Positions 1,538 to 23,410 are shown, counted from the stretch's first letter. The stretch is 64,000 nucleotides of DNA from Escherichia coli (GCF_003334305.1 NZ_QOWS01000018.1), one strand, 5' to 3'. Program-made: numbers and translations. Notes: generated from the sequence alone by a model not told the origin.

Positions 1538-2626
1538 TTAGAACTGGTAAACGATACCCACAGCAACGGTGTCGTCTGAACCTACGCCCAGTTTGTTGTC
1601 AGAATCGATCTGGTTGATGATGTAGTCAACATAGGTGGACATGTTTTTGTTGAAGTAGTAGGTTGCGCCCACTTCAAAGTAGTTCACCAGATCAACATCA
1701 CCGATACCTTCTACGTCTTTCGCTTTAGATTTGGTGTAAGCGATGGACGGACGCAGACCGAAATCGAACTGGTATTGCGCAACTAACAGAACGTCTTGCG
1801 TTTTGTTGGCGAAGCCGCTGGTGTTTGTAAATTTATTAGTGATCGGCGTAGCGTTACGGGTTTCACCGTAGTTCGCTGCCAGGTAGATGTTGTTCGCGTC
1901 GTACTTCAGACCAGTAGCCCACTGTTCAGCTTTTTTACCGTTGCCAAGAGGTTGAGCTTCTTGCAGGTTGGTACGGTCAGCTGCACCATAAGCACCAACG
2001 ATACCAAAGCCTTCGTATTCGTAGCTGATAGAACCGCCAACACCGTCGCCGTTAGAACGGCGTGCAGTGTCACGCTCGTTTTTACCCAGGTACTGAACAG
2101 CGAAGTTCAGGCCATCAACCAGACCAAAGAAGTTGGAGTTACGATAGGTAGCAACGCCGCCAACACGACCAACGAAGAAGTCATCGCTGTATGCAGTATC
2201 ACCACCAAATTCTGGCAGCATATCGGTGTAACCCAGTGCATCATAAACCACACCGTAGTTACGGCCGTAATCGAAAGAACCAACGTCAGCGTATTTAAGA
2301 CCCGCGAATGCCAGACGCGTTTTGTTACCAGTTTGAGCGTCAGCGCCTTCAGAGTTGTTACCCTGGAAGTTATATTCCCACTGACCATAACCGGTCAGAT
2401 CGGAATTGATTTGAGTTTCCCCTTTAAAACCAAGACGGGCATAGGTCATGTCGCCATTGCCACCGTAACTGTTTTCACCGTTACCCTTGGAAAAATAATG
2501 CAGACCAACAGCTTTACCGTACAGATCTACTTTGTTGCCATCTTTGTTATAGATTTCTGCAGCGTTTGCAGTACCTGCTACTAACAGAGCAGGGACGATC
2601 ACTGCCAGAATATTGCGCTTCATCAT
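1538..2626 (-). CDS. ompF: Outer membrane porin F
   Basis: 362-aa [25 protein letters not shown] with signal peptide, ending in the porin C-terminal VGIVYQF. Confidence 0.97.
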
Positions 2627-2739
2627 TATTTATTACCCTCATGGTTTTTTTTATGACACCTGCCACTGCCTTCAATAAGTTCTGTCAATAAAAATTTACG
2701 GAACTATTGATGAGAGTTTGGTGTCTTTATGTGTCTGCA

Positions 2740-2840
2740 GGCATCTTTCCATTCAAACTAACGTTTCGCTACCGTGAAAGTGCTACAAAGATAAAGATTT
2801 AGTTTCAAAAAGAAAAAATATGTAACCAAAAGTAAAAATT
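2740..2840 (-). promoter_or_regulatory. ompF promoter with proximal OmpR-binding sites (F1-F3)
   Basis: Reverse complement reads TTTACTTTTGGTTACATATTTTTTCTTTTTGAAAC...TTTATCTTTGTAGCACTTTCACGG, matching the ompF upstream OmpR region as I recall it; exact site boundaries are approximate. Confidence 0.6.
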
Positions 2841-3184
2841 AAGGAACTTTGTGAACACCGTCATATTTCCATAGAAACGTGATGATATTTACAGCAATTT
2901 TTATCTATTTATATGATTTACTTATATTTAAATTAACTAAACGGAAATTTTGTTTCTGATGGAAACTTTATCGACCTGGCACAAAATCCTCTTTCAGACA
3001 TCCAGAATGCCAAAAAATAGTATGAAAATTGTGCTATCAGCTAAGAAAAAACTAATCCGCAATAAGAATGCGGGTTATTTTTTGTGCGTAAATGTTGCAA
3101 TGTAATATTCCGTAACAGGATGATCGTTATGGCGGGGTTGCAAATAGATTGCTTGACTTAACAAACAGATAACTTGACAGAAAG

Positions 3185-10649: not shown

Positions 10650-11795
10650 TTAACTTTGCGCGACTTTACGGGGGATAAAATCATTCGCCACCGCTTCGCC
10701 TTGCGGATTCAGCGGCTGCGGCTGGGGAATTTCCGGAATGGCGACATCCAGATGTGGGAACAGCAACTCGCCGACCCGATACGCTTCTTCCAGATGCGGA
10801 TAGCCCGAAAGCACAAAGCTGTCGATGCCAAGCGCGGCGTATTCGTTGATTCGCGCAGCGACCGTAGGACCATCGCCCACCAGCGCCGTTCCGGCACCGC
10901 CGCGCACTAAGCCAACGCCCGCCCATAAATTGGGGCTGATCTCCAGATTGTCGCGCTTGCCGTTATGTAACGCCGCCATTCGCTGTTGTCCTACGGAATC
11001 CGTCCGGGCGAATGCGGCCTGTGCTTTGGCGATAGTTTCATCATCAAGATGCGAGATTAACCGCTCGGCGGCCTGCCACGCTTCGTCGTTAGTTTCACGA
11101 ACAATCACATGCAGACGAATACCGAAACGAATTTTGCGTCCATGCGCGGCAGCTTTCGCCCGCACTTGTTCGATCTTCTCTTTTACTAGTTCTGGCGGTT
11201 CGCCCCAGGTGAGGTAGAGATCAACTTGTTCTGCCGCCAGCTCCTGGGCGACGTCTGACGATCCGCCAAAGTAAAGCGGAGGATAAGGCTGTTGAATCGG
11301 CGGGAAGAGCAGTTTTGCTCCGCGCACATGAATATGTTTACCGTTGAAATTGACGGTTTCCCCCAGCAATAAGCGCCGCCAGACCTGGGTAAATTCCGCC
11401 GAGGCTTCGTAGCGCTCGCTATGATCAAGGAACACGCCGTCGCCTGCCAGCTCTTGTGGATCGCTGCCTGTGACCAGATTAAACAACGCACGACCATTTG
11501 AGAGACGGTCAAGCGTGGCGGCCTGGCGAGCGGCAACGGTAGGTGAGGTTACGCTGGGGCGCAGGGCGACAAGAAACTTCAGCCGCTGCGTCACCGGGAT
11601 CATCGACGCCGCCACCAGCCACGCATCTTCACACGATCGCCCCGTTGGGATCAGCACACCGGTATAGCCCAGACGATCCGCCGCTTGCGCAATTTGTTGC
11701 AGATAACCGTGATCAACCGGGCGTGAACCTTCTTCCGTTCCCAGATAGTGCCCGTCACCGTGGGTCGGTAAAAACCAGAACATATTCAGACTCAT
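10650..11795 (-). CDS. ssuD: FMNH2-dependent alkanesulfonate monooxygenase
   Basis: 381-aa [22 protein letters not shown]; luciferase-like monooxygenase. Confidence 0.95.
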
Positions 11796-12751
11796 AATTG
11801 TTTTCCTTCCAGTTGAGTGGGCTGCCAGATGCGCTGGCGAATATCGACTTTTTTCGGCACCAGACGATTTTCATAAAACAGATCTGCCGTTTGCTGCTGT
11901 AAGGCGGCAATCTCGGCGTTAACCGGTTTGATGGTGGTAGGAGGGCGATGATCTAAGTAAGAGGCAATCACCGGTGCCGGTAAGCCCATCGTTTTTGCCA
12001 GTAAAGCGATGCTTTGCTCGCGCTGGCTGCGGGTTAACGCATCGGCCTCACTAAAGGTTGCCAGTACGCCCTGAATAAAAGCGCCGTTTTTTTCTGCATA
12101 GGGGCGAGCTGCCAGATAAAACGATCCGGTTTGATTGAGATCGGTGCCGTCTTTCAACACCCGCACGCCGCCCTGTAATAACGCAGCGGAGTAGTAGGGA
12201 TCCCAGATAGCCCAGGCGTCAACGTTACCTTGCTGGAACGCGGCGCGGGCATCGGCAGGTGTCAGGTAAGTGGGTTGTATATCGGTAAACTTAAGTCCGG
12301 CCTGACGCAGTGCACGCAGTAAAAGGTTGTGTGAACTGGAACCTTTCTGAAAGGCAACTTTGTGACCTTTAAGATCGGCTACGGTTTTGATCGGGCTGTT
12401 TTCTGCCACCAGAATCACTTCGGCTTTGGGCTTCGGTGGCTCGACGCCCACATATACCAAATCAGCCCCGGCAGCCTGGGCAAAGATTGGCGGAATATCC
12501 CCGGTACTGCCGAGATCAATACTGCCAACGTTTAACGCTTCCAACATTTGCGGACCCGCGGGGAACTCCACCCAGGAGATTTTTGATTGCGGATAGCGTT
12601 TTTCCAGTAACTGGTGGCTTTTTGCCAGCACCATACCAATACTGCCTTTCTGATAGCCTATACGTAACGCTTCAGGCGAGGATTCTGCAGCAACCGCAAA
12701 AGTAGAGACGCTAAGCAATCCCGCCAGCGCCAGTTTAATGATGTTACGCAT
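11792..12751 (-). CDS. ssuA: Aliphatic sulfonate periplasmic binding protein
   Basis: Track ORF trimmed to [21 protein letters not shown] with signal peptide (319 aa); 4-bp overlap with ssuD. Confidence 0.93.
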
Positions 12752-13319
12752 GGACATTACCTCGCAGAGACAGAAGGTCAGGAACCTGAACATCGCGGCG
12801 GTGCAATGCCTGCCAGAAAGTTTCTAGCGCGGTATCAAGACGGGTTTGCAGATTTGGCGTGAACTGGGGTCTGTGATGGTAATCAATGACTTGTGAGTCA
12901 TCGGCAAACACGCCGTGCAGGATCTCCTGGGCTTTCAGTGCGCTTAAAACTGGTTTAAGGGCATAATCGACCGCCAGCAGATGGGCCACGGTACCGCCCG
13001 TCGCCAGCGGTAGCACCACTTTGCCTTGCAAAGCGCGCTCTGGCAGCAGGTCGAGCAGGGTTTTCAGCGCGCCGGAATAGGCGGCTTTATACACAGGTGT
13101 AGCGACTATCAGTCCATCAGCCTGTTGCAGCTGTTCGGTGAAGGTCTTGAGTGCCGGACTATCGAAACGAGCATAAAGCAGATCTTCCGGGGCGAAGTTT
13201 TGCAGATTCCAGTGATAAACCTCTACATCGAGGCCATTTAGTTTTTCCCGCGCATATTCCAGCAAGGAGCTGGAGCGAGAAGGAAAGCGAGGACTACCCG
13301 CCAGGGTGATGACACGCAT
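12744..13319 (-). CDS. ssuE: NADPH-dependent FMN reductase
   Basis: 191-aa ORF MRVITLAGSPRFPSRSSSLL; 8-bp overlap with the ssuA start. Confidence 0.95.
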   Translation of the reverse strand: MRVITLAGSPRFPSRSSSLLEYAREKLNGLDVEVYHWNLQNFAPEDLLYARFDSPALKTFTEQLQQADGLIVATPVYKAAYSGALKTLLDLLPERALQGKVVLPLATGGTVAHLLAVDYALKPVLSALKAQEILHGVFADDSQVIDYHHRPQFTPNLQTRLDTALETFWQALHRRDVQVPDLLSLRGNVHA

Positions 13320-13674
13320 ACTCTCTCCTTATAACCAATTGTTCTTTTTTTGTTAACATTGATAACAATTCGGTCAGTCTGTCGGAGAGACAAGAAAATG
13401 CCAAATATAAATTTTGTGTATCTTTTTCTGAAAATAAACTAAAGAAAGGGCTTTATATATCACGCATATTTATTTGTTGGATAGTCATTAGATGTTGAAT
13501 CAATGAATTACTCGTTCAGTTAATATTTAAATATTCATGAAATCTATAAATTAAAGATTTGTCACTTATTGGATTTAGTATGCTTGATTTAAATGGCGGT
13601 CAATTATTGTTATTATTAAGTCTAATGTCATTTAAAGGCATTATCATATTTACGAAGAGATCAGGATGATGACG
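13320..13674. promoter_or_regulatory. AT-rich divergent control region (ssuE promoter / elf fimbrial operon upstream)
   Basis: About 355 bp markedly more AT-rich than the flanking coding DNA, between divergent ssuE and elfA. No specific binding site was mapped. Confidence 0.4.
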
Positions 13675-14217
13675 ATGAAAAAAAGTGTATTGACGGCGTT
13701 TATAACTGTGGTATGTGCAACGTCCAGCGTTATGGCAGCTGATGATAATGCTATCACGGATGGCAAAGTAACATTTAATGGTAAAGTTATTGCTCCAGCT
13801 TGTACCCTGGTAGCTGCGACGAAAGATTCAGTAGTCACATTGCCAAATGTCAGCGCCACCAAGTTGCAAACTAATGGAGCAGTCTCTGGCGTTAAAACTG
13901 ATGTACCAATTGCCTTAGAAGGCTGTGATGTTACTGTAACTAAAAATGCGACGTTTACCTTTAGTGGTACGGCTGACGGCGTGCAACCTACAGCATTTGC
14001 CAACCAGGCTACCACCGATGCAGCGACGAATGTTGCTCTACAAATGTATCTGCCAGATGGTTCTACATCGGTAACTCCCGGTACCGAAACGTCGAATATT
14101 CAGTTAGCGGATTCTGCTGAGCAAACAGTGACCTTTAAAGTTGATTATATCGCTACGGGGAAAGCGACTTCTGGTAATGTGAATGCGGTAACAAATTTCC
14201 ATATTAACTATTATTAA
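13675..14217 (+). CDS. elfA: Fimbrial major subunit (chaperone-usher pilin)
   Basis: MKKSVLTAFITVVCATSSVMA signal peptide and a pilin-like C-terminus. Start chosen at the third ATG (AGGA 10 nt upstream); the other in-frame ATGs at 13666/13669 remain possible. Confidence 0.85.
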   Translation: MKKSVLTAFITVVCATSSVMAADDNAITDGKVTFNGKVIAPACTLVAATKDSVVTLPNVSATKLQTNGAVSGVKTDVPIALEGCDVTVTKNATFTFSGTADGVQPTAFANQATTDAATNVALQMYLPDGSTSVTPGTETSNIQLADSAEQTVTFKVDYIATGKATSGNVNAVTNFHINYY

Positions 14218-14248
14218 TAGAACTCATTAATTGTTTTATTAATTAGTA

Positions 14249-14288
14249 CCCCTCTAGTGTTCTGGAGGGGATATTCATATTTTTTAAG
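14249..14288 (+). terminator. Hairpin plus T-run after the pilin gene (possible partial terminator)
   Basis: cccctctag-tgtt-ctggagggg imperfect 9-bp stem followed by atattcatatttttt, between elfA and elfD. Confidence 0.45.
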
Positions 14289-14299
14289 AGTGACTATTT

Positions 14300-15001
14300 A
14301 TGAAAACTTGCATAACAAAGGGAATTGTGACCGTAAGTTTAACGGCAATATTACTCAGCTGCTCATCCGCATGGGCGGCAGGTAAAGGCGGGATTGGACT
14401 TGCAGCAACACGTCTTGTTTATTCAGAAGGTGAAGAGCAAATTTCACTGGGTGTACGTAACACCAGTCCGGATGTTCCTTATCTTATTCAGTCATGGGTG
14501 ATGACCCCAGATAATAAAAAATCAGCAGATTTTATTATTACACCACCGCTATTTGTGCTGAATCCGGCTAATGAGAATCTGTTACGCATTATGTACATTG
14601 GTGCGCCGTTGGCGAAAGACAGAGAAACCCTTTTCTTCACTAGCGTACGGGCAGTCCCTTCAACAACGAAGCGGGAAGAGGGAAATACCCTGAAGATTGC
14701 CACACAAAGCGTCATCAAACTTTTCTGGCGACCAAAAGGTTTAGCGTATCCCTTAGGCGAGGCTCCGGCGAAACTGCGTTGCACTTCGTCAGCTGACATG
14801 GTTACGGTCAGTAACCCAACACCTTATTTCATTACCCTGACAGACCTGAAAATAGGTGGAAAAGTAGTTAAAAATCAAATGATTTCCCCCTTTGATAAAT
14901 ACCAATTTTCTCTGCCAAAGGGGGCCAAAAATAGCAGCGTAACGTATCGAACCATCAATGACTACGGGGCGGAAACGCCGCAACTCAACTGTAAATCGTA
15001 A
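14300..15001 (+). CDS. elfD: Periplasmic fimbrial chaperone
   Basis: 233 aa with signal peptide; PapD-like chaperone. Confidence 0.92.
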   Translation: MKTCITKGIVTVSLTAILLSCSSAWAAGKGGIGLAATRLVYSEGEEQISLGVRNTSPDVPYLIQSWVMTPDNKKSADFIITPPLFVLNPANENLLRIMYIGAPLAKDRETLFFTSVRAVPSTTKREEGNTLKIATQSVIKLFWRPKGLAYPLGEAPAKLRCTSSADMVTVSNPTPYFITLTDLKIGGKVVKNQMISPFDKYQFSLPKGAKNSSVTYRTINDYGAETPQLNCKS

Positions 15002-15025
15002 GCCGTCTTCAGTTAAGAGAGCGAG

Positions 15026-18687
<3,662 letters not shown>

Positions 18688-18698
18688 CGCGTGAACGT

Positions 18699-19241
18699 AT
18701 GAAGAAAAAAACGATATTTCAGTGCGTTATCTTGTTCTTTAGCATTCTTAACATCCATGTCGGGATGGCTGGGCCTGAACAAGTTAGTATGCATATTTAT
18801 GGGAATGTGGTCGATCAGGGCTGTGATGTCGCCACCAAAAGTGCATTACAAAATATTCATATTGGTGATTTTAATATCAGTGATTTTCAGGCCGCGAATA
18901 CCGTAAGCACTGCTGCTGATTTGAATATCGATATCACCGGTTGTGCCGCTGGTATTACTGGCGCGGACGTCCTTTTTAGCGGCGAGGCTGACACCCTTGC
19001 GCCGACACTGCTCAAACTAACTGACACAGGCGGAAGCGGTGGTATGGCAACGGGGATTGCCGTGCAAATTCTTGATGCGCAAAGTCAGCAAGAAATCCCG
19101 CTCAATCAGATCCAGCCTCTTACGCCCTTAAAAGCCGGGGATAACACACTCAAATATCAACTTCGTTATAAGTCCACAAAGGCGGGAGCAACGGGCGGTA
19201 ATGCGACGGCGGTTCTCTATTTTGATCTGGTTTACCAGTGA
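18699..19241 (+). CDS. ycbU: Fimbrial-like minor subunit
   Basis: 180 aa with signal peptide; pilin fold. Confidence 0.88.
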   Translation: MKKKTIFQCVILFFSILNIHVGMAGPEQVSMHIYGNVVDQGCDVATKSALQNIHIGDFNISDFQAANTVSTAADLNIDITGCAAGITGADVLFSGEADTLAPTLLKLTDTGGSGGMATGIAVQILDAQSQQEIPLNQIQPLTPLKAGDNTLKYQLRYKSTKAGATGGNATAVLYFDLVYQ

Positions 19242-19248
19242 AGGAGTG

Positions 19249-19764
19249 ATGTTGAAACGGATAATCTGGATTCTGTTCTTACTGGGATTAACGGGGGGCT
19301 GTGAGCTATTTGCCCATGATGGCACAGTCAACATTAGCGGATCGTTTCGCCGTAATACATGCGTGCTGGCACAGGATAGCAAGCAAATCAATGTGCAGTT
19401 AGGCGATGTCTCGCTGACACGTTTTTTTCATGGGAATTATGGCCCGGAGAAATCTTTCATCATTAATTTGCAGGATTGCGGAACAGATGTCAGCACGGTT
19501 GACGTCACCTTTTCAGGAACCCCCGACGGAGTGCAGAGCGAAATGCTGTCCATTGAAAGTGGTACGGATGCAGCCAGCGGGCTGGCAATTGCGATTCTGG
19601 ATGATGCGAAGATATTGATTCCGCTTAACCAGGCGAGTAAAGACTACAGCCTACATAGCGGTAAGGTGCCATTAACTTTTTATGCGCAATTGCGACCTGT
19701 CAATAGCGATGTGCAGTCGGGTAAAGTGAATGCCAGCGCGACATTTGTACTTCATTATGACTAA
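19249..19764 (+). CDS. ycbV: Fimbrial-like minor subunit
   Basis: Track ORF trimmed to MLKRIIWILFLLGLTGGCELFA (171 aa); AAGGAG 3 nt upstream of this ATG. Confidence 0.85.
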   Translation: MLKRIIWILFLLGLTGGCELFAHDGTVNISGSFRRNTCVLAQDSKQINVQLGDVSLTRFFHGNYGPEKSFIINLQDCGTDVSTVDVTFSGTPDGVQSEMLSIESGTDAASGLAIAILDDAKILIPLNQASKDYSLHSGKVPLTFYAQLRPVNSDVQSGKVNASATFVLHYD

Positions 19765-20467
19765 TACGTGGAACAGATTGGCGCTCTTGATTTTCGCCGT
19801 TTTATCGCTGCTGGTGGCGGGTGAATTGCGGGCAGGAGTGGTGGTCGGCGGAACGCGATTTATCTTTCCGGCAGACAGAGAATCGATATCTATTTTACTG
19901 ACTAATACCAGTCAGGAATCCTGGCTTATTAACAGTAAAATCAACCGCCCAACGCGTTGGGCCGGGGGGGAAGCGTCGACAGTGCCAGCACCATTACTGG
20001 CCGCTCCGCCACTTATTCTCCTGAAGCCCGGTACTACAGGCACGTTGCGCTTGCTGAGAACGGAAAGCGACATCTTGCCTGTGGATCGCGAAACGCTATT
20101 TGAGTTAAGCATTGCCAGCGTGCCATCCGGCAAAGTTGAAAATCAGAGCGTAAAAGTGGCGATGCGCTCGGTATTTAAACTGTTCTGGCGACCCGAAGGT
20201 TTGCCGGGCGACCCGCTGGAAGCTTATCAACAATTACGCTGGACACGGAATTCGCAGGGTGTACAACTCACTAACCCAACGCCTTACTACATTAACCTGA
20301 TTCAGTTGAGCGTAAATGGTAAAGCGTTAAGTAATGCGGGAGTTGTGCCGCCTAAAAGCCAGCGTCAGACAAGCTGGTGTCAGGCAATCGCACCGTGTCA
20401 TGTCGCCTGGCGGGCGATAAATGATTACGGCGGGTTGAGTGCAAAGAAGGAGCAAAATCTGCCCTGA
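19757..20467 (+). CDS. ycbF: Second periplasmic fimbrial chaperone of the operon
   Basis: Track ORF trimmed to MTNTWNRLALLIFAVLSLLVA (236 aa); PapD-like; start overlaps the ycbV stop. Confidence 0.85.
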   Translation: MTNTWNRLALLIFAVLSLLVAGELRAGVVVGGTRFIFPADRESISILLTNTSQESWLINSKINRPTRWAGGEASTVPAPLLAAPPLILLKPGTTGTLRLLRTESDILPVDRETLFELSIASVPSGKVENQSVKVAMRSVFKLFWRPEGLPGDPLEAYQQLRWTRNSQGVQLTNPTPYYINLIQLSVNGKALSNAGVVPPKSQRQTSWCQAIAPCHVAWRAINDYGGLSAKKEQNLP

Positions 20468-20476
20468 AACAGGTTC

Positions 20477-20492
20477 GGAAAACGTTTGCGTT
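20477..20492. promoter_or_regulatory. Candidate PurR operator upstream of pyrD
   Basis: ggAAAACGTTTGCGtt contains the conserved AAACGTTTGCG core of the pur box; pyrD is a reported PurR target. Confidence 0.5.
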
Positions 20493-20577
20493 TTTTTTGC
20501 CGCAGGTCAATTCCCTTTTGGTCCGAACTCGCACATAATACGCCCCCGGTTTGCACACCGGGAATCCAGGAGAGTTC

Positions 20578-21588
20578 ATGTACTACCCCTTCGTTCGTAA
20601 AGCCCTTTTCCAGCTCGATCCAGAGCGCGCTCATGAGTTTACTTTTCAGCAATTACGCCGTATTACAGGAACGCCGTTTGAAGCACTGGTGCGGCAGAAA
20701 GTGCCTGCGAAACCTGTTAACTGCATGGGCCTGACGTTTAAAAATCCGCTTGGTCTGGCAGCCGGTCTTGATAAAGACGGGGAGTGCATTGACGCGTTAG
20801 GCGCGATGGGATTTGGATCGATCGAGATCGGTACCGTCACGCCACGTCCACAGCCAGGTAATGACAAGCCGCGTCTCTTTCGTCTGGTAGATGCCGAAGG
20901 TTTGATCAACCGTATGGGCTTTAATAATCTTGGCGTTGATAACCTCGTAGAGAACGTAAAAAAGGCCCATTATGACGGCGTCCTGGGTATTAACATCGGC
21001 AAAAATAAAGATACTCCAGTGGAGCAGGGCAAAGATGACTATCTGATTTGTATGGAAAAAATCTATGCCTATGCGGGATATATCGCCATCAATATTTCAT
21101 CGCCGAATACCCCAGGATTACGCACGCTGCAATATGGTGAAGCGCTGGATGATCTCTTAACCGCGATTAAAAATAAGCAAAATGATTTGCAAGCGATGCA
21201 CCATAAATATGTGCCGATCGCAGTGAAGATCGCGCCGGATCTTTCTGAAGAAGAATTGATCCAGGTTGCCGATAGTTTAGTTCGCCATAATATTGATGGC
21301 GTTATTGCAACCAATACCACACTCGATCGTTCTCTTGTTCAGGGAATGAAAAATTGCGATCAAACCGGTGGCTTAAGTGGTCGTCCGCTTCAGTTAAAAA
21401 GCACCGAAATTATTCGCCGCTTGTCACTGGAATTAAACGGTCGCTTACCGATCATCGGTGTTGGCGGCATCGACTCGGTTATCGCTGCGCGTGAAAAGAT
21501 TGCTGCGGGTGCCTCACTGGTGCAAATTTATTCTGGTTTTATTTTTAAAGGTCCGCCGCTGATTAAAGAAATCGTTACCCATATCTAA
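20578..21588 (+). CDS. pyrD: Dihydroorotate dehydrogenase (quinone)
   Basis: Track ORF begins at a TTG; trimmed to the ATG giving [21 protein letters not shown] (336 aa). Confidence 0.95.
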
Positions 21589-21620
21589 TTATTTCTTCGA
21601 ATTCCTCTTTATAAGATAAT

Positions 21621-21655
21621 CAGGGCTTTATTTTCAGCCCTGGTTGTTTTATATT
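21621..21655 (+). terminator. pyrD intrinsic terminator
   Basis: Stem cagggct/agccctg, loop ttattttc, then gttgttttatatt. Confidence 0.6.
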
Positions 21656-21761
21656 CATCGCTGTTGCTTATTTAGACATTTTGTACTTTTATTGTTGAGG
21701 TTATTAAGCGAAGCGACAATGGATTGTGTTGCTGCGGTTTTATAGGGTAGGGGAGAGGCAG

Positions 21762-22304
21762 ATGCGAATTAAACCAGACGATAACTGGCGTTGGTATTAC
21801 GATGAAGAGCACGATCGAATGATGCTCGATTTAGCCAATGGTATGCTATTTCGCTCACGTTTTGCGCGCAAGATGTTGACTCCAGATGCCTTTTCTCCCG
21901 CAGGCTTTTGCGTTGACGACGCCGCGCTCTATTTCTCTTTTGAAGAAAAGTGCCGCGATTTTAATTTATCTAAAGAACAAAAAGCCGAACTGGTGCTGAA
22001 TGCACTGGTAGCAATTCGCTATCTCAAACCGCAAATGCCGAAAAGCTGGCATTTTGTTTCCCATGGTGAAATGTGGGTGCCCATGCCGGGCGATGCGGCC
22101 TGCGTTTGGTTGAGCGATACTCACGAGCAGGTCAATTTGCTGGTCGTTGAATCTGGCGAAAATGCCGCACTATGCCTGCTGGCACAACCCTGCGTTGTTA
22201 TTGCGGGTCGCGCGATGCAGTTGGGCGACGCCATTAAAATCATGAACGACAGGCTGAAACCGCAGGTTAATGTTGACAGCTTCAGCCTCGAACAGGCTGT
22301 CTAA
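21762..22304 (+). CDS. zapC: Cell division protein ZapC (FtsZ-associated)
   Basis: Track ORF trimmed to [24 protein letters not shown] (180 aa). Confidence 0.9.
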
Positions 22305-23410
22305 CGCGCCAACTTAAGTGCAGTCTTCGGTACACAGCTACAGCAAAGAATGGTGCCATCATCGCCCATTGCTGATTTTTTCAGCGGCGTGACTTCGCCT
22401 TCTAAAAGCTGAACACGGCAACTTCCACAAATGCCCGCGCGGCAAGAATAAGGGATACGAATTCCCTGATTTTCTAATTGCTCCAGCAACACCTGTTGGT
22501 TATTTCCACGAAATGCCTGTCCCTGCCAGTCAATATCTACATTTGCGTCCGGTTGTTGCGTGATGTTGGCGGTATCATCAGCGGCAGCTGCGCCGTAAAT
22601 TTTTGCCGGAGCCGTTGCCAGAATTTCCACCTCATCGCCAACGCGAATCACGCCGCTATTACGGGCAATTAAATTCTGACCAAAATCGACATCGCCGTTA
22701 TCCTGGGCAGTGCGGAAAGATTGCAATGTTTTTAATGGTTCGCCTGCCGGATGTTTTTGCCCTTTTTCTGGGCTGACGGTGGTGAAAATACAGCGGCTAC
22801 AAGGTTTAACCACATCAAACACCACATCACCAATGCGAATCACTTTCCAGCTATCTTCTTCCCAGGCTGACGCGCCGGAAACCACCAGATTGGGGCGGAA
22901 TTGCTCCATTTTTACACTGGCCGGACAACGTTGTTGGAGATCACGTAACGAGGCTTCGTTAGCAAGAAGGTAAGGATAGCCATCAGCAAATGACAGGGGT
23001 ACAGTGTTGTGGCGTTTCACGCGCCGGGTCATTTGTGGCCCCACCCAGCGTAATTGCACTTCGCGGGAGAAAAATCCACTTAGCCATTTGTTGATCGCGT
23101 CTGGCGCAATTCGCGCGGTAAAATGTGTGCCCCAAACTTCGGTTGGTGCGTCTTGTGTGGCGAAATCAGCAAAACGAACATATGCGCTACTGCCATCTGG
23201 TGCGGTGAGATGCAAGCCATCATGCACAGGTGAAGGAGTAAACCGTACCATCTGGGGAAACTGGCGAGCGGTAATAAACGTACCGTCAGGTTCCGTGATC
23301 ATAAAGATGCGATCGAAGGCCAGACCACTGACATCAGCCAGAGCATGTGTAAGACCAATGCCGCGCATCGATTTAACAGGATGAATAAAAAGCCGGGTTA
23401 ATGTCGCCAC
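22301..23410 (-). CDS. ycbX: MOSC-domain protein with C-terminal 2Fe-2S ferredoxin domain
   Basis: 369 aa; C-terminal cysteine cluster [11 protein letters not shown]...CCSC typical of plant-type ferredoxins; 4-bp convergent overlap with zapC. Confidence 0.92.

Follow-up and report, generated by a model that had tools for sequence, protein, structure and literature searches.

Why a single fimbrial operon should keep genes for two periplasmic chaperones, and whether the second of these is a working gene or a dead copy, is a question raised by a locus lying between ssuE and pyrD in Escherichia coli. The DNA analysed here is a stretch of 64,000 nucleotides (nt) from this species (GCF_003334305.1, NZ_QOWS01000018.1), referred to below as the window, in which positions 13320-20467 hold a cluster of chaperone-usher genes and the control region in front of them. 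This region is almost certainly the known elfADCG-ycbUVF operon (formerly ycbQRSTUVF; Ycb/ELF, 'E. coli laminin-binding fimbriae'), and it is intact here. Its first chaperone gene is elfD (ycbR; 14300-15001, + strand), encoding a protein of the FimC/SfaE type of 233 amino acids (aa), and its last gene, ycbF (19757-20467, + strand), encodes a second periplasmic chaperone of 236 aa. From the sequence comparisons described below we conclude that YcbF is likely to be a working chaperone, of a lineage distinct from ElfD, and no dead copy.

Both proteins have the features of PapD-like chaperones, which consist of two Ig-like domains and fix the C-terminus of the subunit through a conserved pair, Arg8 and Lys112. 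In the PDB, ElfD matched SfaE (E = 1.5e-51) and FimC (E = 3.6e-51), with its motifs ATR and IKLFWRP aligned to Arg8 and Lys112, and YcbF matched FimC (E = 1.2e-32), with GGTR and FKLFWRP aligned to the equivalents of the same two residues. YcbF also scored 549 bits against the NCBIfam model PRK11385 (cutoff 357), and the domains PF00345 and PF02753 are recorded on a cluster representative with 97% identity. ElfD and YcbF share only 35% identity, and because of this they are regarded as old paralogues. Twelve YcbF-family proteins (38-70% identity) were aligned together with ElfD, and in these 13 sequences R34 and K141 were invariant. Two marks of the YcbF family are missing in ElfD, namely a nearly invariant pair of cysteines (C208/C214) and an insertion containing Trp and Gly at approximately residues 62-80, the latter being absent from FimC as well.

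The position of the second chaperone gene is also conserved. The order pilin, chaperone, usher, adhesin, minor pilin, minor pilin, second chaperone was found in a Pseudocitrobacter-like contig, in Enterobacter roggenkampii and in Buttiauxella, and in each of them the last pilin gene overlaps the second chaperone gene by 8 nt. The start of ycbF in the window is ambiguous, as the Prokaryotic Genome Annotation Pipeline (PGAP) places it at the ATG at 19730 (245 aa, with a 35-nt overlap with ycbV), and a K-12-type start is found at the ATG at 19757 (236 aa, with an 8-nt overlap). The start at 19757 is favoured because three other genera share the 8-nt overlap. This start also coincides with that of the NCBIfam model of YcbF, whose alignment begins at residue 10 of the longer open reading frame (ORF). 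A preliminary description of this DNA had raised the possibility that ycbF is a non-functional copy; for this allele the intact ORF, the Arg/Lys pair, the conserved position and a ratio of nonsynonymous to synonymous substitution (dN/dS) of approximately 0.3 lend it no support.

The dN/dS values were determined by the Nei-Gojobori method and summed over pairs of five E. coli alleles; with counts that are small, they were 0.05 for the neighbouring ssuE, 0.13 for elfA, 0.08 for elfD, 0.05 for elfC, 0.07 for elfG, 0.29 for ycbU, 0.11 for ycbV and 0.30 for ycbF. All seven genes of the operon thus appear to be under purifying selection, with ycbU and ycbF the most relaxed. Several observations weigh against a specialised role for YcbF. 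The dN/dS of ycbF is the highest of the operon, a value that rests on 3-15 nonsynonymous substitutions per pair. In K-12, invasion of HCT-8 cells is reduced when any of the ycb genes other than ycbF is knocked out (the same study shows that the usher binds heparin), so that the ycbF mutant is the only one of the seven without an invasion defect (PMC4914927), and in O157:H7 ycbF is frameshifted. Weak points of the reading of the locus as a whole are that the ElfA protein encoded here differs by 16% from the K-12/O157 allele that was used in all experiments, and that a consensus promoter scan of positions 13200-20700 returned 6 sites, compared to 11.9 in shuffled sequence, with no promoter assigned.

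The knockout result, the difference between ycbF (0.30) and elfD (0.08) in dN/dS, and the presence of the same -1 frameshift of ycbF in two O157:H7 assemblies and of a separate frameshift in a run of seven G residues in strain C41 all speak for an alternative in which ElfD serves all four subunits by itself and ycbF is redundant, persisting through slow decay or a marginal contribution. We consider this alternative unlikely, as a dispensable gene would hardly be expected to outlast such divergence between genera: in YcbF orthologues of other genera, at 38-57% identity, R34 and K141 are invariant and the two cysteines nearly so, and both the position of the gene and its 8-nt overlap are retained. 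Within E. coli the ORF is intact here and ycbF shows an identity of 95% or more in practically every one of the approximately 4,070 carrier genomes, unlike elfA, and a dN/dS of 0.3 is still that of a gene under purifying selection.

The damaged copies themselves were also compared. The O157:H7 assemblies Z1836 (L004) and E32511 (L007) carry identical -1 frameshifts in elfC (in a run of C residues) and in ycbF, and have lost the start of ycbU; the window equivalents of these lesions are 15514 in elfC, 18699 in ycbU and 20200 in ycbF. E32511 has in addition a stop codon in elfG, and none of the O157:H7 lesions is present in the operon of this window. The ycbF lesion is real, being found in two assemblies, but the usher is frameshifted too, which indicates that the whole operon is decaying in O157:H7 and not ycbF specifically, and the broken usher prevents the role of YcbF from being isolated there. 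In C41 (L005, 7474-8210) the separate ycbF frameshift lies in the G7 homopolymer, at window position 19964, in an operon that is otherwise intact; it could mark a slippage-prone site or an assembly error, and as a homopolymer lesion it may be a sequencing error.

Ycb fimbriae produced from cloned O157:H7 Sakai DNA were made visible by electron microscopy and influenced biofilm formation and adhesion to Madin-Darby canine kidney (MDCK) cells (PMC7098969), and ELF from O157:H7 DNA are attributed to Samadder 2009, as cited in the same paper. The host in which the Sakai clone was expressed was a K-12 strain, and such strains as a rule have an intact elf operon of their own. The published Sakai cloning primer terminates at the frameshifted stop of ycbF (PMC7098969).

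If YcbF is a working chaperone, the question becomes which subunits it serves. It is quite possible, though tentative, that YcbF serves mainly the minor or tip subunits and ElfD the rod subunit, since in every related operon examined the two minor pilin genes and the overlapping second chaperone gene stay together, while the adhesin gene can move. Such a move was seen in a second E. coli cluster, located between glgP and glpD (L008, 3730-10924), where the order is pilin, chaperone, usher, minor pilin, minor pilin, second chaperone and adhesin (376 aa). YcbF-type chaperones could perhaps form a separate, conserved lineage, translationally coupled with the two adaptor pilins in the Elf-like clusters of several genera and in the glgP-glpD cluster, with a division of labour in which the rod and the tip fibrillum each have a chaperone of their own. 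If true, the relaxed constraint on ycbU and ycbF (dN/dS approximately 0.3 each) would reflect co-evolution within this sub-module. In the 987P system, the fas operon encodes subunit-specific chaperones, FasB, FasC and FasE, each for a different subunit, and this is proposed as a model that may apply to ElfD and YcbF, as a lead and not a result.

In E. roggenkampii (L010, 9730-10017) the second chaperone gene is followed by a 95-aa ORF with a faint match to ScsC_N, a thiol-disulfide oxidoreductase N-terminal domain, and this recalls the bcfH gene of Salmonella. Speculatively, the Cys-x5-Cys pair of the YcbF family might be a substrate of such a ScsC_N-like protein. A bcfH-type thioredoxin-fold gene was not found at the locus studied here, as the 110-bp spacer between ycbF and pyrD has no ORF and holds the PyrD leader.

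The identification of the operon is based on its position, its gene order and its sequence. In an ORF listing of window positions 11500-22500 all seven ORFs were uninterrupted and on the + strand, flanked by ssuE on the minus strand (12744-13319) and by pyrD (20578-21588). Over 7.4 kb the sequence matches that of E. coli A7 with 100% identity and those of K-12-like strains with 97.4%, and elfA/D/C/G and ycbU/V/F are annotated there; apart from the favoured K-12-type start of ycbF, the start codons of the gene coordinates given here are those of the RefSeq annotation of the A7 locus. The locus shares with K-12 the ssuE-pyrD position, the gene order and a near-identical sequence, with the exception of elfA (82.3% nt identity). 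Before and between the two chaperone genes lie elfA (ycbQ; 13675-14217, +), encoding the major pilin of 180 aa, elfC (ycbS; 15026-17626, +), encoding the outer-membrane usher of 866 aa, elfG (ycbT; 17617-18687, +), encoding a predicted two-domain tip adhesin of 356 aa, and ycbU (18699-19241, +) and ycbV (19249-19764, +), encoding minor, adaptor-type pilins of 180 and 171 aa. From elfA to ycbF the junctions are, in order, +82, +24, -10, +11, +7 and -8 nt, the last being -35 nt with the PGAP start of ycbF.

The preliminary description had listed seven co-directional genes (a pilin, a chaperone, an usher, an adhesin, two minor pilins and a chaperone) with overlapping or closely spaced junctions, and on this the ORF listing and the RefSeq annotation of A7 agree; the gene identities, names and order that it gave are likewise correct by RefSeq A7 and NCBIfam. 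The operon is already described and well annotated, and its identification is not contradicted by any result obtained here.

Protein families were assigned by an NCBIfam scan with equivalog cutoffs applied, which were passed by ElfC and YcbF. ElfC matched PRK15193 with 1763.6 bits (cutoff 995) over its full length (1-866), as expected of the usher, and its next matches were FimD (957 bits) and LpfC (853 bits); the orthologous ushers of related clusters carry PF13954, PF00577 and PF13953. The three pilins, ElfA, YcbU and YcbV, matched fimbrial families at 1e-33 to 1e-36, and each has a donor strand at its N-terminus, a single pair of cysteines and Tyr as its penultimate residue. For ElfA the best NCBIfam match was BcfA (6.5e-34), and the protein starts with a signal peptide and has a donor-strand segment at its N-terminus, the pair Cys43-Cys84 and the C-terminus ...HINYY. 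YcbU matched BcfE (2.1e-36) and FimF (3.2e-21), and has a donor-strand-like N-terminus, the pair Cys42-Cys82 and the C-terminus ...LVYQ. YcbV matched BcfF (1.9e-33) and FimF (2.3e-32), with the pair Cys38-Cys77 and the C-terminus ...LHYD.

The closest known systems are the Ycb/ELF operons of K-12 and O157:H7, which have the same site, the same seven genes and the same junctions, with six of the genes 96.8-99.8% identical in nucleotide sequence. They differ in that their elfA is of another allele class, and the O157:H7 copy is damaged whereas this one is intact. The Bcf system of Salmonella enterica supplied the best non-self NCBIfam matches for ElfA, ElfD, YcbU, YcbV and YcbF (the latter with PRK15192, which we take to be BcfG), and for ElfG BcfD was just behind LpfD. 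The bcfABCDEFGH genes have the order pilin, chaperone, usher, adhesin, minor pilin, minor pilin, chaperone, as in elf, at a different chromosomal location. The same order from pilin to second chaperone was seen in Enterobacter. Bcf has been termed an orthologue of Ycb (PMC7886704). The proteins of the window did not reach the equivalog cutoffs of BcfA, BcfB, BcfD, BcfE and BcfF, scoring 117 of 247, 205 of 365, 124 of 517, 125 of 240 and 116 of 238 bits, respectively, and by these scores the Elf proteins are classed as homologues, and not equivalogs, of Bcf.

Type 1 fimbriae share the same assembly logic, with ElfD corresponding to FimC, ElfC to FimD, YcbU and YcbV to FimF and FimG, and ElfG to FimH as a two-domain protein; Elf/Ycb and type 1 fimbriae are both placed in the gamma-1 class (PMC7098969). 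They differ in that type 1 fimbriae have one chaperone and Elf has two, and in that elf has no fimB/fimE recombinase; no invertible promoter element was found. The receptor domain of ElfG is also like that of LpfD and not like the mannose-binding domain of FimH. The lpf operon, for its part, has a single chaperone.

The likeness of ElfG to LpfD was found in both its sequence and its predicted fold. Residues 33-356 align with LpfD of adherent-invasive E. coli (PDB 5AFO; E = 5e-27), and the Pfam domain PF00419 covers only residues 211-356, which divides the protein into an N-terminal receptor-binding domain at approximately 31-205 and a C-terminal pilin domain at 211-356. ElfG is without an N-terminal donor strand, and the FimH-family NCBIfam match is confined to residues 165-356. 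An AlphaFold model was made with 20 homologues (mean predicted local distance difference test score 80.7, predicted template modelling score 0.55). Its top structural match was again 5AFO (E = 3.3e-25, template modelling (TM) scores of 0.67 and 0.69, 337 columns, 26% identity). Weaker whole-protein matches were FimH, PapG, CupB6 and CfaE, with FimG and FimA for the C-terminal half, and the TM score of the whole model to E. coli FimH was 0.29-0.36.

ElfG is thus predicted to be a two-domain tip adhesin of the LpfD type, and the domain and structure prediction proposed in the preliminary description yields an LpfD-type N-terminal receptor domain followed by a pilin domain. Because the identity is 26%, the receptor specificity of LpfD is not transferable to ElfG. 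The receptor of ElfG and the role of the second chaperone had been called not well defined; this is fair, as no paper addressing either was found. A second deep class of elfG was observed in isolate NRZ94505 (L012, 4914-5984), with the same protein present in L006. Compared to the window, the L012 gene has a dS of 0.73 and a dN of 0.055, and the neighbouring elfC a dS of 0.24. This second allele class could mean another receptor specificity.

The major pilin gene is the part of the operon in which this copy differs most from K-12. Here elfA has 82.3% nt and 84.4% aa identity to the K-12 gene and is one codon longer, and the spacers that flank it are approximately 99% identical (98.8% for the elfA-elfD spacer). 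Between positions 13320 and 14400, 92 of the 101 differences from K-12 are concentrated in a hypervariable tract at approximately 13820-14172 (+ strand; bounds approximate, relative to the K-12 allele), leaving the signal peptide, the donor strand and the 28 C-terminal residues conserved. In a set of 5,426 complete genomes of E. coli, an elfA at least 99% identical to this allele is carried by 1,496, and identity is 95-99% in 53, 90-95% in a single genome, 80-90% in 2,312 (the K-12/O157 type) and 60-80% in 152. The dS between elfA classes is 0.64-1.0 versus 0.02-0.24 for elfD and elfC, and because of these values the classes are considered old. The gene falls, by sequence identity, into discrete and deeply diverged allele classes with a bimodal to trimodal distribution. 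PGAP gives the name 'elfA' only to the K-12-type allele, so that the allele of this window goes unlabelled, and the ELF/Ycb experiments found in the literature were all on the K-12/O157 class.

Between elfA and elfD there is a GC-rich stem-loop with a 9-bp stem (14249-14270, + strand), with a run of U residues after it (14280-14285). When positions 14205-14310 were folded as RNA, the energy was -28.4 kcal/mol (z = -4.34), and none of 200 shuffled sequences was as stable; the consensus scan overlooked this hairpin because its U-run begins 9 nt past the stem. By analogy with other chaperone-usher operons, it is a candidate attenuator or messenger RNA stabiliser that would raise the major pilin over the downstream genes.

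Upstream of the operon, the 355 bp between ssuE (-) and elfA (+) form an AT-rich divergent control region (13320-13674), presumed to be the region of H-NS nucleation and SlyA binding. The preliminary description had called this region strongly AT-rich, which holds to its exact length: the GC content of the spacer is 27.9% versus 51.0% for the whole window, the lowest value in the 64 kb. Windows of equal size that are equally AT-rich make up 0.13% of the 64 kb, and every one is inside the ssuE-elfA spacer. The low-GC tract runs on into elfA, to approximately 13740, so that AT-richness both upstream of and into the first gene was found, as looked for in an H-NS-silenced promoter. TpA steps occur in the leader at 2.3 times the density of the window. 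The second-most AT-rich tract of similar size (2641-3120, approximately 28-30% GC) is the upstream region of ompF (1538-2626, minus strand), adjoining asnS, and is ordinary.

What we take to be the high-affinity H-NS motif has a one-mismatch match in the leader, TCTATAAATT at 13543. In all, the leader has one match with one mismatch and one with two, approximately five times the density of the window, on counts that are tiny, and these matches are consistent with H-NS binding, being no evidence of it. A promoter-like site was seen at 13588-13616 (+ strand; TTTAAA-17-TATTAT with TG), as a consensus match without statistical weight. An Rfam scan of 13000-20800 found no small-RNA family in the leader, its sole match being the PyrD leader. 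There is also no sign of a fimS-type switch in the form of inverted repeats bracketing the promoter or a recombinase ORF; the inverted repeats that were detected either pair the leader with elfA or lie entirely inside elfA. A 23-nt direct repeat, 74% identical between its copies, lies directly upstream of the ribosome-binding regions of elfA (GGCATTATCATATTTACGAAGAG, 13637-13659) and elfD (GGGATATTCATATTTTTTAAGAG, 14268-14290), and may be due to chance.

In K-12, elfADCG-ycbUVF is listed as cryptic and as associated with H-NS in the datasets of Grainger 2006, Kahramanoglou 2011 and Oshima 2006 (Table 2 of PMC5797941). Korea et al. 2010, as cited by the same paper, reported poor laboratory expression, repression by H-NS and functional fimbriae when the operon was expressed from a constitutive promoter. 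SlyA binds the 355-bp ssuE-elfA region in an electrophoretic mobility shift assay, and over-production of SlyA raises elf transcripts 2.7-fold (PMC5797941). Because the leader here is 98.9% identical to that of K-12, the published regulation should transfer to this copy, and the reading of the leader as an H-NS-silenced control region with SlyA as its antagonist is supported by way of the K-12 literature. The earlier statement that the operon is silent in the laboratory agrees with the published K-12 data. The preliminary description had also turned on whether the region is bound by H-NS in chromatin immunoprecipitation, and the K-12 operon is H-NS-associated in three genome-wide datasets.

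The operon is not carried by all E. coli. In genomes without it ssuE and pyrD are 236 bp apart, and homology with the window breaks off at 13381 and is found again from 20478, defining a presence/absence module at 13382-20477 (+) of 7,096 bp that holds most of the leader and the seven genes. At the empty site approximately 75 bp of unrelated sequence stand between the homology ends (L003, 1683-1757). About a quarter of the complete genomes (1,428 of 5,426) have no match at a query coverage of at least 80%, with no match for ycbF in 1,353 and none for elfA in 1,412. On the left, the module boundary lies only 62 bp ahead of the start codon of ssuE, within the ssuE control region. On the right, the PyrD leader (Rfam RF02373, 97.9 bits; 20510-20583) starts 33 bp past the boundary, and because of this the pyrD promoter must sit at the module junction. 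Of the 5,448 places that match the elf region, four lie on records with a plasmid label.

The sharp boundaries, the GC content of the module (46.7% compared to 51% for the window), its patchy distribution among the complete genomes and the reported preference of H-NS for acquired DNA (Oshima 2006, as cited in PMC5797941) could be taken to mean that the module is a recent horizontal insertion at ssuE-pyrD and its AT-rich leader plain foreign DNA. This is improbable, given that a Pseudocitrobacter-like metagenome contig (L009, 1134-9848) has an orthologous seven-gene operon, with a YcbF of 55% identity, in the same context of ssuE and pyrD-zapC-ycbX-rlmL-uup-pqiA, which points to an old and vertically kept location, and that no integrase, tRNA or direct repeat was found at the module boundaries. 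Because the same operon occupies the same site in another genus, the locus is taken to predate E. coli, and this synteny speaks in favour of an ancestral locus that was lost later in some lineages. The patchy distribution is explained equally well by lineage-specific loss, as Ycb is found in phylogroups A, B1, D and E and a related, mutually exclusive system, Auf, in B2 (Wurpel et al.; PMC3559732). The glgP-glpD cluster (L008) was considered as the B2 Auf operon; its usher matches only 229 of the 5,426 complete genomes at megablast sensitivity, and it is not, or not recognisably, Auf.

That the whole operon is a non-functional relic here, silent, unseen by selection and not yet broken, is very improbable in spite of its crypticity in laboratory K-12, its loss from about a quarter of complete genomes and its degradation in O157:H7, since all seven ORFs are unbroken across 6.8 kb, five genes (elfC, elfD, elfG, ycbV and elfA) have dN/dS values of 0.05-0.13, similar to that of the housekeeping gene ssuE, the same operon is found at the same site in another genus, and fimbriae and phenotypes have been published for the K-12 and O157 versions.

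A scheme of assembly can be proposed from the genes present here, read in the light of the established chaperone-usher mechanism. Transcription would begin in the 355-bp ssuE-elfA spacer, where, going by the K-12 literature, H-NS would silence it and SlyA could open it, and the strong hairpin after elfA would probably set the excess of major pilin over the downstream products. The subunits would be exported to the periplasm by Sec, and each would be captured by a PapD-like chaperone through donor-strand complementation. The chaperone would then hand its subunit to the ElfC usher, where donor-strand exchange would polymerise the fibre, with ElfG at the tip, followed by the FimF/FimG-like adaptors YcbU and YcbV and then by the ElfA rod. 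Surface assembly has been reported for the K-12 operon (Korea 2010, via PMC5797941) and for cloned O157:H7 Sakai DNA, as described in PMC7098969.

The annotation of this operon is at textbook level, and its confirmation adds nothing new. What is added here is the assignment of ElfG to the predicted LpfD type, of YcbF to an old and apparently constrained paralogue, the delimitation of the 7.1-kb module, the elfA classes and the degraded state of the O157:H7 copy. The small points of interest, which are the retention of two chaperones in one group of fimbrial operons, the ligand of ElfG and the diverged elfA classes, leave the understanding of chaperone-usher systems unchanged. They bear on adhesin typing and on any ElfA-based vaccine or serology, and the elfA class of this window is carried by approximately 1,500 complete genomes.

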